Origin: Promethearchaeota archaeon Loki_b32
GTDB taxonomy: Archaea > Asgardarchaeota > Lokiarchaeia > Sigyniarchaeales > SOKP01
DNA: 31,813 bases
Direction: 5' to 3'
NCBI GenBank assembly: GCA_005223125.1
Contig: NJBH01000040.1
Coordinates: 1 to 31,813 of the forward strand
A program made the translations under genes and the position numbers. Under the pieces are notes generated by a model, which was given only the letters and a program-made list of their open reading frames with translations, was not told where the DNA came from and ran no database searches. The first letter of the stretch is position 1, and every line of letters begins with the position of its first letter. This document shows, in pieces, positions 13,321 to 30,086 of this stretch.

Positions 13321-14328
13321 ATGAGGTTTATTTCTGGTTTAAAAAATTTAGGAAAAAAAACGATTTTAGTGATAATTCTTATTCTTTTCATTATTTCCTG
13401 GTTATTATTCGTAATTGGTTTTGTTATTCTTGAAAAGCATTCAATTGGGGTTTATATCCAAATATTTCTTGGAATTTTAGCGGGATTTACCTTTGTGTTA
13501 ATTATTTTATCTTTTATTAGGCCACTTGATAAAATGGGAGCAATTTTGATTATCCTTGCAGTTGTTTTAACAATACCAGTTCTAATAATCTTTGGGAGGA
13601 TTATAGGACTTTTTTATTATTTCTGCTTTTTTGCAAATGCAGTAATAACAGCATTTTTTGCATTTAAATTTTGTATGGATACATCAACGACGGTTGATGA
13701 TTTCTTGTACAAAAAAAAAGGCTCTAGAATATTCACGAGAACGTTAGAATTCATAATCTTTTTGGTTCTTAGTTGGTGGTTTGTCTCAATAACAATTAGA
13801 TTCTTTAGAGGTTTTCCAACTCCTGGTGTTCAAAGATTAGCAATATTTTTTATTAATCTCTTTTGGATAGGTTTAATACTTATAGTATTTGTCATCCTTA
13901 GATTAATTTTTACTAAAAAATTAGCTGCTTATATTAGTTTATTTGATGTTTTAATATTCCTTTATGTAATTTATCTTGTGATAGGTCTCTGGGCAGAATT
14001 TATCTTTTATGATAGTTCAGGTTATGTTATCTTTACATTTGTGGTTGATTTGCTATTATTTATTTATATTATTGGCTCGATTTTTGATCGTGTAGATTAT
14101 ATAAAGGACAAACTTAAAATATTTCGAGCAGACACTATAGCCTTATTCGTAATTTTAATGAAGGTAATTGTCCAAATCAATAAAATTTCCCAAATATTCA
14201 TGACACCATTAGAACTAGCTAAACAAGTAATATTTCAAGTACAAATTCTATGGTTTTTCTTTGTTTTCTTTACAATTGTAGTTGGAATATATACTATCTT
14301 TAAACATAAAGAAGGTAAAACTTCTTAA
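13321..14328 (+). CDS. Multi-pass membrane protein, unknown function
   Basis: About 10 hydrophobic segments. Confidence 0.7.
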   Translation: MRFISGLKNLGKKTILVIILILFIISWLLFVIGFVILEKHSIGVYIQIFLGILAGFTFVLIILSFIRPLDKMGAILIILAVVLTIPVLIIFGRIIGLFYYFCFFANAVITAFFAFKFCMDTSTTVDDFLYKKKGSRIFTRTLEFIIFLVLSWWFVSITIRFFRGFPTPGVQRLAIFFINLFWIGLILIVFVILRLIFTKKLAAYISLFDVLIFLYVIYLVIGLWAEFIFYDSSGYVIFTFVVDLLLFIYIIGSIFDRVDYIKDKLKIFRADTIALFVILMKVIVQINKISQIFMTPLELAKQVIFQVQILWFFFVFFTIVVGIYTIFKHKEGKTS

Positions 14329-14424
14329 TTTTATTTTTTTTAAATCTATCCCTTCGGTTAACATTTATAAGTTGTATTTACTAATTAACAATAATTATTT
14401 TAATTTGAATAAGAAAGAGATACT

Positions 14425-14670
14425 ATGAGTGAAACTGAATTAAATCAGTTAAGAAAGGGAAAAATCAAAAAAACAATACTACTCATTCTTATAATTGTCG
14501 CATTCGGAGCAATTATTACCACTCTCTTTGTCATTTATTTTAATATAAATACTAACGAGGGAGGATGAGCTTGTTTAATGTTTGGTGATCCAATATTTTA
14601 TTTGAAGGAATGGAGCTTATTCAATTACTCTTTCAAATATATGAATAGCTTTATCATATTTTCAGTATAA
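14425..14670 (+). CDS. Candidate small membrane selenoprotein (81 aa, Sec at residue 48, GG-U-A-C)
   Basis: ATG 14425; in-frame TGA 14566-14568; frame stays open 33 more codons to TAA 14668-14670; SECIS-like hairpin core starts 11 nt after the stop. MSETELNQLRKGKIKKTILLILIIVAFGAIITTLFVIYFNINTNEGG-U-ACLMFGDPIFYLKEWSLFNYSFKYMNSFIIFSV. Confidence 0.65.
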
Positions 14671-14740
14671 TATCGAATGGAATGATTCCTGCTAAAAAAT
14701 GATAGTAGTAGGAGGACCTACCCTGCAAGGGTTTCGAATA
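14671..14740 (+). promoter_or_regulatory. Eukaryote-type SECIS element in the 3' UTR
   Basis: AUGA (14682-14685), U, UCCUGCUA (14687-14694), AAAAA loop, UAGUAGGA (14706-14713), G, GA (14715-14716), C. This gives a tandem G.A core, an 8-bp helix and apical adenosines. Outer pairing UCGAA/UUCGA. Confidence 0.7.
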
Positions 14741-14771
14741 ATAGAGTTTATTTCTAAGAAAAAGGGTATCC

Positions 14772-14783
14772 TTTTTTTTTTTT
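14772..14783 (+). terminator. Oligo-T archaeal terminator candidate downstream of the SECIS
   Basis: T12 run followed by further T-rich tracts. Confidence 0.4.
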
Positions 14784-14850: not shown

Positions 14851-15003
14851 ATGCCAGTTGCAATTCTCGAAGTAAATGAAAAGAAGATTCCATTAAAAGA
14901 TTTTATGCAAGATATGTTAACAAATATCGTTCAAGGATTTTTGAAATCTACTAAGGGTGTCCCTCAAAACATAGAAAATATTAAAATCACTATAAAACTA
15001 TAA
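14851..15003 (+). CDS. 50-aa protein resembling the MobB C-terminal domain
   Basis: MPVAILEVNEKKIPLKDFMQDMLTNIVQGFLKSTKGVPQNIENIKITIKL matches the L.VNGKKIPL..F.Q.....I.G....LKG...I.I pattern; not in track. Confidence 0.6.
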   Translation: MPVAILEVNEKKIPLKDFMQDMLTNIVQGFLKSTKGVPQNIENIKITIKL

Positions 15004-27956: not shown

Positions 27957-30086
27957 TTAAAAACTTGTAAGGAATATAAAACCCCAATTAATAATACCTC
28001 CGATTAATAAAGCCATACCAATCTCTAGAAGTGTAATTTTTAAAGCAAACTTCCAATTAGTTTCCTTTGCAATTAGAACTACTGTTGCAAAGCATGGGAT
28101 GTAGAGCATTGTTACTAAACTGAAAATAATCATTTGAAATGGAGTAAGTAATCCTAGGAGAGTTGTACCCATAGAATTTGCTAATAAAGCTAAAAGAACT
28201 AAAGTTAATTCCTTCCTTAAGATTCCATAAATTAAAAAAATGCCGGTAATTGCAGGCAATCCCAACCAGTATACGGTTATTGGTGATAAAAGAGAATTGA
28301 CAGGATCTAATAATCGAAACATAAATAAAATCTCCAAAATGATCCCTGATATTATTATTATAGGCATAGCTTTATAGATGAACTCTTTGGTTCTTACCCA
28401 TGTTTGTTTTAAAATTACAGAATAATTTGGAACACGATATTCATGCATTTCCATAATTAACTCAGTGCATTGACCCGGTAAAATCTTATTTAATATTTTA
28501 CCAACGATTATTATTACAATAAAATTTATAACAAATAAAATTAAGACCCAAGTTATACCAACATATCGCCCTACTAATCCTAATACGACAGTCATTACTG
28601 CTGCACAAGGAACTAAAGAAGTTAATGCAATTGAAATTTTCTTTTCTCGTTCTGTTTCCATAATTCTACATCCAGTACAAGCAGGAACATTACATCCAAA
28701 CCCTAAGATCATAGGGATGATAGTTTTTCCATGGACACCTAAAGAATGCATGAATCTATCCATGAGATATGCTGCTCGTGGTAGATAACCTGAATCCTGC
28801 AAAATTTCAATAATTAAAAAGAAAGGAATCACATATACTAAAACACCACCTACGGCTCCAAAAAGTCCTCCCAAACCTCCTTCCCAAAATATTTTAACTC
28901 CCAGATTATCATCACCATAGACTTCATAAATAAAGTTATTTAGAGCTTCAAACATATCCTCTATAACTCCACCAAAGAAATCACCGATAAGAAAAGTAAA
29001 AAAATATATCCCAAAAAGGATTAAAGCTAATATCACATAGCCCCAAAAAGAATGTGTAGTTAAATGATCTATTTTATCAGCCCAGAAGAGTTTCTTTTCA
29101 ACGTGAGTTTTAACATTAACAACTTCTTCAATAATTTTATGTATATTTGTATAGATTTCCGAAGAGATGATTGTACTGATATCTTCACCATGATATTCTT
29201 CTAATTCTTTTCGATACTTCTCTACTAAGTCAATTATATAAGATGTTTCCTGGTTAGCCTTGAATAATTTTTCAATTTCTTCATCACGTTCTAAAATCTT
29301 AATAGCTAAGAATCGTGAGGGGTAATTAAATTTTGAAAAATAATTTGAAAACTTATCAACATTTCTAATTAACTCATATACTTTAGTTTCGACTTCTTTA
29401 CCACATTTCAATATTGAAGATAAATCTGGAAACTGAAATGTCTTTTTGATAGATAAATCATTTTTAACTTTTTTATCATCATGAGATAATTGTTCATGAA
29501 TTTTTTTACTATTCTGAATATAATGTGAGGTAGGATGTTTATAAACAACTAATTCAATTGCTTCTTCAAGCAATTTGTGAACTCCCTTTCCATGAACAGC
29601 TACAACAGGAATAACAGGTAATTTAAATATATCTTCTAATTTTTTAAAATTTAAGATTAAATTTCGTTTATAAAATATATCCATCTGATTGATAGCTAAT
29701 ATCATCGGGACTTTTAATTCTAATAATTGAAATGTAAAGAATAAATTACGTTCAAGATTTGTAGCATCTATTACATTAATAATAATATCTACTTCTTCTG
29801 AGACTATATACGCTCTACTAATAATCTCCTCTAGCGAGTAGGTTGACAGGGAATAGATTCCTGGCAAATCTACGATATTAAAATGATATCCTAAGAAATT
29901 CAAATGCCCCTCCATCTTTTCTACTGTTTTTCCGGGCCAGTTTCCAATTGTTTGAGAAAGACCAGTAAGTTGATTAAAGATTACTGATTTACCAACGTTT
30001 GCATTACCGGCTAAAGCAATATTAATAATATCTTTATATTTTGCTTTTTTTGATATCTTCCTTTTTTTAGATATACTATTACTCAT
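27957..30086 (-). CDS. feoB: Ferrous iron transporter B
   Basis: GNANVGKS, GNWPGKTVE, DLPGIYSL, DSGYLPRAA, GFGCNVPA, LYIPC. Confidence 0.97.
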   Translation of the reverse strand: MSNSISKKRKISKKAKYKDIINIALAGNANVGKSVIFNQLTGLSQTIGNWPGKTVEKMEGHLNFLGYHFNIVDLPGIYSLSTYSLEEIISRAYIVSEEVDIIINVIDATNLERNLFFTFQLLELKVPMILAINQMDIFYKRNLILNFKKLEDIFKLPVIPVVAVHGKGVHKLLEEAIELVVYKHPTSHYIQNSKKIHEQLSHDDKKVKNDLSIKKTFQFPDLSSILKCGKEVETKVYELIRNVDKFSNYFSKFNYPSRFLAIKILERDEEIEKLFKANQETSYIIDLVEKYRKELEEYHGEDISTIISSEIYTNIHKIIEEVVNVKTHVEKKLFWADKIDHLTTHSFWGYVILALILFGIYFFTFLIGDFFGGVIEDMFEALNNFIYEVYGDDNLGVKIFWEGGLGGLFGAVGGVLVYVIPFFLIIEILQDSGYLPRAAYLMDRFMHSLGVHGKTIIPMILGFGCNVPACTGCRIMETEREKKISIALTSLVPCAAVMTVVLGLVGRYVGITWVLILFVINFIVIIIVGKILNKILPGQCTELIMEMHEYRVPNYSVILKQTWVRTKEFIYKAMPIIIISGIILEILFMFRLLDPVNSLLSPITVYWLGLPAITGIFLIYGILRKELTLVLLALLANSMGTTLLGLLTPFQMIIFSLVTMLYIPCFATVVLIAKETNWKFALKITLLEIGMALLIGGIINWGFIFLTSF

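Follow-up and report, generated by a model that had tools for sequence, protein, structure and literature searches.

Selenocysteine (Sec) decoding in Lokiarchaeia has been described for the PrxL, HdrA-VhuD and VhuU genes, which share one recoding apparatus and one type of RNA signal (Mariotti et al. 2016, PMC4989117; PMC11227280). The selenocysteine insertion sequence (SECIS) elements of these genes, termed lokiSECIS, carry AUGA on the 5' side in every case, with a 9-bp stem, an 11-nt loop and, directly 3' of the stem, GA (or AA); the first five loop bases are mostly A, and the last is an invariant G that usually follows an A (PMC4989117). Seven selenoprotein families have been listed for Asgard archaea, namely SelD, FrhA/VhuU, HdrA, FrhD/VhuD, Prx-like, AhpF-N-like and DsbA-like (Huang et al. 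2024, PMC11227280), and a 2026 review counts 11 for archaea as a whole (PMC13188914). The published Asgard and archaeal selenoproteomes, including studies from 2016 and 2021, come from homology searches that started from known selenoproteins or from their cysteine forms. The locus described here lies in a 31,813-nt stretch (the window) of the Promethearchaeota archaeon Loki_b32 assembly (GCA_005223125.1, contig NJBH01000040.1, positions 1 to 31,813) and consists of a small open reading frame (ORF) interrupted by an in-frame TGA, followed within a few nucleotides by a SECIS-like element; the two are called the mini gene below. It appears to use the same apparatus and signal as the genes named above, and the PrxL and HdrA elements of the same genome have the same closing helix, 3' mini-hairpin and spacing of a few nucleotides past the stop. 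However, PrxL, HdrA-VhuD and VhuU are soluble redox enzymes, whereas the mini-gene product would be a small membrane-anchored peptide, unrelated to them as a protein.

Window positions 14425-14744 are interpreted as a monocistronic selenoprotein gene of Promethearchaeia with an 81-residue type II membrane product that exposes Sec at the outer face, a reading to which a probability of about 85% is given. That the gene is truly Sec-decoded and belongs to a new family is, on the sequence evidence, held more firmly still. The support is comparative and computational, and is composed of the ORF, the conserved TGA, the SECIS element with its covariation, the decoding machinery of the genome, the distribution of the family and the lack of known relatives.

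As read from the sequence, ATG 14425 opens a plus-strand ORF that ends at TAA 14668-14670 and has 81 residues when the TGA is read through. Codon 48 is this TGA (14566-14568), in the context NEGG-U-A-C, and the frame then stays open for 33 codons, starting A-C, up to the TAA. The unannotated frame, its basic N-terminus, its single transmembrane (TM) helix, the TGA at codon 48 and the 33 codons up to position 14670 were all located where the initial annotation had put them. At 30% G+C, the chance of 33 open codons after a TGA is estimated from base composition at about 6%; as this run alone is only a ~6% event, it is the comparative data that carry the weight. The parts of the coding region are the following.

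14425..14670, plus strand: selenoprotein coding sequence, stop included, 81 residues (predicted; orthologues of the same architecture in about 80 genomes)
14425..14472, plus strand: N-terminal flank, residues 1-16, with five K/R directly before the helix; predicted to be cytoplasmic
14473..14541, plus strand: TM helix, residues 17-39 (23 residues), best 19-residue Kyte-Doolittle window 3.05
14542..14565, plus strand: polar linker with terminal Gly-Gly, residues 40-47; predicted to be extracytoplasmic and flexible (family alignment, AlphaFold2)
14566..14568, plus strand: TGA, codon 48, predicted to be read as selenocysteine; nearly invariant alignment column
14569..14667, plus strand: post-UGA tail, residues 49-81; moderately hydrophobic or amphipathic helix, variable in the family
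14572..14574, plus strand: TGT, Cys50, the partner residue in U-x-C

The 3' UTR (untranslated region) of this ORF holds a structure that agrees with every published point of a lokiSECIS: AUGA, 9-bp stem, 11-nt loop and GA, all within 14672-14744. The tandem G.A core of UGAN/NGAN type and its hairpin, 11 nt past the stop, had been recognized in the initial annotation and stand as described; the 8-bp helix given there is replaced by a 9-bp helix closed by U.G in the canonical reading, and the full element proves larger than had been claimed, as a closing helix and a mini-hairpin belong to it as well. RNAfold draws the same hairpin together with these two parts, and the element can be divided as listed here.

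14672..14744, plus strand: complete lokiSECIS (Asgard eSECIS-like type I) in the 3' UTR; covariance model R1, 48.9 bits, E 4.4e-12
14673..14677, plus strand: helix I, 5' strand UCGAA, pairing with 14733-14737 (RNAfold)
14682..14685, plus strand: AUGA, 5' half of the kink-turn core, 11 nt after the TAA
14686..14694, plus strand: helix II, 5' strand, 9 nt, pairing with 14706-14714 and closed by U.G
14695..14705, plus strand: apical loop, 11 nt, AAAAAUGAUAG, with an A-rich start and a final G preceded by A
14706..14714, plus strand: helix II, 3' strand
14715..14716, plus strand: GA, 3' half of the kink-turn core, invariant in the family SECIS alignments
14720..14732, plus strand: mini-hairpin ACCCU-GCA-AGGGU, 5 bp, between the core and the 3' strand of helix I (RNAfold)
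14733..14737, plus strand: helix I, 3' strand UUCGA (RNAfold, RNAalifold)

The identity of the element was examined with a covariance model, R1, whose training set was 17 PrxL elements, taken from the source genome and 15 others of its genus, and the HdrA element of the source genome, with none from the mini-gene family. When the window was scanned with R1 and all filters off, positions 14672-14744 scored 48.9 bits (E 4.4e-12) and the next best match 13.6 bits, so that a model derived from other Loki SECIS elements, the check put forward at the outset, does retrieve the mini-gene element. A strict-pattern scan of the whole 4.13-Mb, 30% G+C assembly yielded six elements of SECIS shape, which goes beyond chance. 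The other five stand 2-18 nt past the stops of genes with in-frame TGA: a PrxL gene (one TGA), HdrA, an HdrA-VhuD pair, and two tandem ORFs outside known families with two adjacent TGA codons each. The loop pattern of AAAAAUGAUAG (AAAAA...AG) recurs in the other SECIS elements of the genome, and the closing helix and 3' mini-hairpin are seen in 6/6 elements, the mini-gene one included; the mini-hairpin is likewise present in the PrxL elements of the genus. Rfam gave nothing at its gathering thresholds and nothing SECIS-like at E <= 10; as Rfam evidently has no model that recognizes lokiSECIS, its silence is uninformative as to identity.

The fold is conserved among orthologous elements. In 40 aligned elements the UGA of the core is invariant, and the base before it is A in all except one, which has G. 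RNAalifold applied to the 40 UTRs recovered all three helices, the mini-hairpin included, with compensatory changes in 12/16 pairs; helix I has such changes in 5/5 of its pairs. In helix II, 6/9 pairs have changed on both sides, 91% of alignment cells are paired versus 36-74% when the partner strand is slid, and the covariation score was reached in 0/500 shuffles. The hairpin is thus kept, as the initial annotation had anticipated, by compensatory change in each of its helices. Judged by sequence and predicted fold, the element belongs fully to the lokiSECIS, or Asgard eSECIS-like type I, class, and it is predicted to direct Sec insertion.

Relatives were sought by six-frame searches, with the readthrough protein and then with profiles, at a cut-off of E <= 1e-5. 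The profiles gave 89 matches from approximately 80 Promethearchaeia (Loki) genomes, and 83/89 have an in-frame TGA. The family occurs in 45/53 genomes of the source genus and 36/42 of a second, sister genus, in some genomes of four further genera of the same taxonomic family (six genera in total), and in 3/3 genomes of a taxonomic family that lies outside the source order but within the same class. If the TGA were a plain stop, drift among TAA, TAG and TGA would be expected in an A+T-rich genome of 30% G+C, yet TGA has been kept in the proportion given. In all, 44 distinct members were inspected (40 first and four added later; the charge table and the SECIS alignment cover 40), and their identity to the window protein ranges from 16 to 54% among those aligned. 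All 44 have the same layout ahead of the TGA, in which a basic flank and a single TM helix lead to an acidic or polar linker and then to a Gly run, and in each a lokiSECIS is present 1-86 nt past the extended stop. The conserved TGA predicted for homologs was therefore found, at the same site after the Gly run in every member inspected.

The Sec context is mostly GGGG-U-[G/A/V/L/P/S]-C. Variants include C-G-U-G-G, C-T-U-G-stop, U-P-S-T-C and U-C-stop, and a few members have no Cys (...GTGTUG-stop); in most, a Cys is located within 1-4 residues of Sec on either side, usually at +2. The frame is open to just before the SECIS element across members. In ten ungapped orthologue pairs, which are not independent of one another, substitutions at codon positions 1/2/3 number 66/24/65 in the tail and 56/60/84 in the head; the tail pattern is the one expected for a translated hydrophobic segment.

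Homologs with TAA or TAG at codon 48 had been named in advance as a sign against Sec decoding, and some do occur: certain genomes of the second genus hold a second copy with TAA at the Sec site and no SECIS. Two were inspected (L086:1504-1632 and L156:43-171), in which the TM helix is followed by a seven-Gly run, ...TIFG, the TAA and then a Cys, with no SECIS downstream. Both genomes also keep a copy with TGA and SECIS. Such copies are few among the ~90 matches, and the main family retains its TGA; they are read as probable Sec-less derivatives in which loss of the SECIS went with loss of the TGA.

In public databases the family appears either as "hypothetical protein" stubs of 39-54 aa or as full-length proteins with W at the Sec site. 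The stubs stop at the TGA, which bears out the expectation that gene callers would truncate the window protein at 47 aa. The W entries have another origin: in P0021 the L021 protein recurs with W in place of Sec, so the TGA was called under another genetic code. P0009 (70 aa, W at the Sec site) had been considered as a TGG variant; P0021 shows that W entries of this sort come from TGA, and the TGG reading was dropped. Entries P0021-P0025 and P0050 of the public sets are of this kind, full-length with W from TGA=Trp gene calling, and form a trap in searches for non-Sec homologs.

No relative in a described family was identified. A Pfam scan of 20 members at E <= 10 matched 32 families, of which 25 are listed and each of the other seven matches at most one member; nothing in it was significant, and SelK and SelS are not among the 25 listed. 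NCBIfam and the PDB likewise returned no relative of the family, only chance matches to TM helices. The family is not among the seven Asgard (PMC11227280) or 11 archaeal (PMC13188914) families, and full-text searches of the literature turned up no report of any small Asgard selenoprotein located in the membrane. The suggestion that the product falls outside known families is upheld by these searches. As no clear Cys homolog leads to it, the family is invisible to homology-based selenoprotein searches. An N-terminus of the type IV pilin signal peptide or lipobox kind was also considered and rejected: the basic residues follow Gly, the hydrophobic stretch runs to 20-30 residues, and between it and Sec lie a further 5-28 residues of polar character.

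The genome has the machinery that such a gene would need, and all of the components named in the initial annotation could be located. SepSecS is found at C57:27123-28424 (486 bits), with an EFSec/SelB-like factor (242 bits) 5 kb away; a PSTK-like kinase scores 138 bits, under the equivalog cut-off, and SelD is encoded twice in tandem, with an in-frame TGA in both genes. Neither RF01852 nor ARAGORN found a tRNA-Sec in the assembly, the best RF01852 hit being an intron-bearing tRNA with anticodon CCA; 16/26 congeners, however, have an 89-nt tRNA-Sec over the Rfam cut-off. BLAST with the congener tRNA-Sec located the gene approximately 125 nt from SepSecS (G000:C57 ~28489-28650, minus strand), with anticodon UCA. 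It is split by two insertions of ~30 nt, in the D arm and the T arm, where congeners are uninterrupted, which explains why both programs missed it; the insertions are presumably archaeal introns. SepSecS is present in 130/135 genomes of the taxonomic family.

From these components a mechanism can be outlined. A ribosome reaching the UGA at codon 48 would be directed to insert selenocysteine by the lokiSECIS 116 nt further on, with archaeal/eukaryote-type machinery, in which EFSec would deliver the Sec-tRNA(Sec) made by PSTK, SepSecS and SelD, and translation would continue to TAA 14668-14670. The product would be a single-pass type II (N-in, C-out) protein with a basic cytoplasmic flank, a TM helix and a short acidic or polar linker that often bears sequons. 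A flexible Gly run would then expose Sec, in most cases within a U-x-C motif, on the outer side of the membrane, and the tail past Sec would be a loosely constrained hydrophobic or amphipathic segment, lost in several lineages. The orientation is predicted from charge. In 40/40 members the flank before the helix has 2-7 K/R (mean net charge +2.7), and in 40/40 the linker after it has 0-1 K/R and 0-9 D/E (mean net charge -1.2); under the positive-inside rule this bias predicts an N-in, C-out topology in which Sec would lie beyond the membrane by a few residues. By our own reading of the tabulated linkers, N-x-S/T sequons occur there in several orthologues and are compatible with an external location. 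In 19-residue Kyte-Doolittle windows the helix reaches ~3.0 and the tails 0.2-1.9, mostly under the TM range (0.66 for the window protein, also under it). AlphaFold2, supplied with the 40-sequence family alignment, gives a helix over residues 3-41 with a predicted local distance difference test score (pLDDT) of ~78-85, a disordered loop over residues 42-56 that holds Sec (pLDDT <50 over residues 46-56) and a second helix over residues 57-80 at low confidence.

Three other explanations were weighed against a Sec-decoded membrane protein. Were the UGA an ordinary stop, the product would be a 47-residue TM peptide and the element a kink-turn RNA with some other role, for example in L7Ae binding or mRNA stability or as a small RNA. 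Public gene calls do end at the TGA, readthrough adds only 1-2 residues in several species, and no Rfam model recognizes the element. Yet all other elements of the same shape in the genome stand behind genes that have an in-frame TGA, PrxL and HdrA/VhuD among them, and R1, made from PrxL and HdrA elements, finds this one; TGA is fixed in 83/89 matches despite high protein divergence and an A+T-rich genome, conservation extends to the Cys two residues past the TGA and to the open frame that leads to the SECIS, and the second-copy paralogues with TAA are without SECIS too, which leaves the ordinary stop very improbable. Little credence is likewise given to a selenium-sensing leader or regulatory micro-ORF, in which the efficiency of UGA decoding, not the peptide, would tune a downstream gene. 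The very small gene with a variable, dispensable tail would suit such a role, as would the same-strand neighbor 130-190 nt downstream within each genus, which is a 50-aa ORF in the source genus and in the second genus a ~265-aa ORF that, judged by eye, may encode a TrmB-type helix-turn-helix regulator. Against this, the charge asymmetry, the hydrophobic helix of 20-30 residues and the Gly run before Sec are kept in 40/40 members, a T-run separates the mini gene from the next gene, the downstream neighbor differs between genera, and the consensus fold from RNAalifold is that of the SECIS only, with no attenuator-like alternative seen.

SelK and SelS carry Sec in the cytosol, and this bears on whether the mini gene is an archaeal homolog and forerunner of these eukaryotic selenoproteins of the endoplasmic reticulum membrane, the least probable of the three explanations. 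SELENOK and SELENOS are alike in small size, in a single TM helix near the N-terminus and in a flexible, Gly-rich Sec segment with a G-U-G-like context, and in some species of the mini-gene family Sec is even penultimate (...GTUG-stop, ...GUG-stop). However, there is no detectable homology: SelK and SelS are absent from the Pfam families listed at E <= 10, and there is no PDB match. The charges, K/R before and D/E after the helix in 40/40 members, predict the opposite topology with Sec outside. Where SelK and SelS have Sec as the second or third residue from the C-terminus, the mini-gene family usually has x-Cys after it and then a hydrophobic tail that can reach 33 residues, and in the window protein it lies 34 residues from the C-terminus (residue 48 of 81). 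The features in common are of low complexity and converge easily.

Several observations weigh against the reading of the locus as a Sec-decoded gene for an outward-facing membrane protein. Both selenium in the protein and its expression are predicted from sequence. Exchange of TGA for a Cys codon at position 48, which had been suggested as a check, did not appear, as collections of 5.8 billion and 1.84 billion proteins contain no clear orthologue with Cys at the Sec site, which tells against the gene by the usual Sec/Cys measure. Weak CxC look-alikes (P0059, E 7e-4; L139) are not convincing. The tail varies from 1 to 33 residues across members and is poorly conserved in sequence; a minority (e.g. 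L024, L034, L037, L084 and L135) end 1-2 residues past Sec, and in species with such tails the SECIS comes a further 64-86 nt on. Past the UGA, then, less is conserved than in enzymes; of the conservation that the initial annotation looked for there, the open frame and the depletion of changes at codon position 2 were found, while tail length and sequence vary. Since the tail shrinks to 1-2 residues, the conserved unit is the anchor, the Gly run and Sec, and the tail may partly be a translated spacer. The few members without a Cys near Sec weaken a strict U-x-C redox model. The topology is a prediction from the positive-inside rule, and the mean pLDDT of 66.7 marks the AlphaFold2 model as one of low confidence. 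Gene neighborhood was also tried as a clue to function and given up, as no partner gene is conserved across genera.

As for what a Sec-decoded membrane protein of this kind might do, the initial annotation had described an 81-aa membrane selenoprotein with a U-x-C redox motif; the membrane selenoprotein gene is borne out by the TGA, the SECIS and the machinery, and the redox role stays an inference. An outward-facing role in redox chemistry or binding is possible and is put forward tentatively. By analogy with the systems below, we propose that the protein may act as a membrane-tethered selenol/thiol pair, used for selenenylsulfide cycling or for binding of soft metals or chalcogens at the cell surface, possibly between the two chains of a dimer. 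For those members that have no Cys near Sec, binding or an intermolecular diselenide would fit better than an intramolecular redox pair.

Thioredoxin reductase ends in a flexible GCUG-COOH arm. A binding role has been argued for the DUF466/SaoC proteins, which end in Cys-Sec-COOH, and for SaoP and SaoB (Haft preprint 10.1101/2022.07.06.499078). The arms of thioredoxin reductase and DUF466/SaoC are similar to that of the mini-gene product in placing Sec beside Gly or Cys on an unstructured segment near the end of the chain, and they are thought to act by selenenylsulfide chemistry or metal ligation; they differ in that they are found in or beside defined enzymes or transporters, whereas the mini-gene arm would be attached to a lone TM anchor with no conserved partner. 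SaoP and SaoB are a precedent for Sec that serves binding, at a membrane or outside the cytoplasm, instead of catalysis of the classical kind (10.1101/2022.07.06.499078), but they are large bacterial ABC-transporter subunits with an in-frame bacterial-type SECIS (bSECIS) and with Cys homologs, unlike the mini gene. The FeoB-associated Cys-rich membrane protein (PF12669), whose function is presumed to be metal-related, resembles the family in having one TM helix followed by a Gly/Cys-rich motif; however, only 1/20 members matches it, at E 0.11, which is far from significance, and the mini gene has Sec in place of Cys and different flank charges.

A gap of 96 nt separates the mini gene from the TAA (14326-14328) of an upstream 335-aa gene, and oligo-T tracts terminate archaeal transcription. 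Two putative elements can be noted.

14364..14370, plus strand: possible archaeal TATA box, TTTATAA, ~55 nt 5' of the ATG, read from the sequence
14757..14783, plus strand: weak hairpin followed by a run of 12 T (14772-14783), a likely transcription stop (sequence, RNAfold)

The 12 T residues 3' of the SECIS are the oligo-T run noted in the initial annotation. The consensus terminator scan did not call a terminator at 14757-14783 on the plus strand, as the stem has too few G-C pairs.

Gene order in the source genus is MFS, a 335-aa polytopic protein, the mini gene, a 50-aa ORF and an ARMT1-like phosphatase. Neighbors differ in the second genus, and the neighborhood is kept only within genera; synteny thus indicates descent and not an operon. 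The 50-residue ORF (window 14851-15003, plus strand), ~100 nt past the SECIS, is found in 27/29 of the loci that match any window neighbor, at 52-81% identity; it is always just downstream of the mini gene, has no Pfam match and is conserved to a degree unusual for its size. The 335-residue polytopic membrane protein (window 13321-14328, plus strand) belongs to no Pfam family and lies directly upstream in most, though not every one, of the genomes of the genus, at 39-70% identity; in the sister genus it does not.

Further selenoprotein candidates are present in the same genome. On G000:C24, two paralogous ORFs with 161 and 158 residues (L016:229-714 and L016:928-1404, both minus strand) lie in tandem; each has two adjacent in-frame TGA codons (...GC-U-U-E... 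and ...AD-U-U-A...) and a conserved tail of ~40 residues, with a strict lokiSECIS 8 nt past each stop (cores starting at G000:C24:226519 and 227218, minus strand). They have no Pfam match and make up a candidate di-selenocysteine family that is absent from the published lists. A 103-residue ORF at G000:C11:35368-35679 (L140:469-780) has a basic N-terminal flank and one TM helix, from which an acidic linker of some length leads to the motif DDDDCF-U-H and a conserved 41-residue tail, and its TGA form is also found in two congeners (L137 and L141). The SECIS at its 3' end (L140:753-826) is an R1 match at 49.6 bits (E 1.7e-12), and this TM-CFUH protein is a second, different membrane-anchored selenoprotein candidate. 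The genome also has three PrxL-type genes with in-frame TGA (G000:C3:11167-12437 and G000:C31:2827-3306); two are in tandem, the second with two TGA codons, and a strict-pattern SECIS is found only at the first of these.

The mini gene probably represents an undescribed family, known only in Sec form and confined to Lokiarchaeia, of micro-proteins that are tethered to the membrane and turn a selenol outward. It would be the first membrane-anchored archaeal selenoprotein and, with the di-selenocysteine and TM-CFUH candidates, would bring the unlisted selenoprotein families of this genome to at least three, although this wider claim is made with a little less assurance than that for the gene itself. 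The family is widespread and has the same strict RNA signal as accepted selenoprotein genes, and it shows that a SECIS-first search finds more than compilation by homology; annotation pipelines now emit 39-54-aa stubs or W artefacts in its place. It would add a membrane or surface location to an archaeal selenium biology so far made up of soluble hydrogenase, Hdr and peroxiredoxin chemistry. Even if these proteins are only analogues of SelK and SelS, a eukaryote-like SECIS would already be serving small membrane selenoproteins in Lokiarchaeia, which bears on the path of selenocysteine from archaea to eukaryotes.

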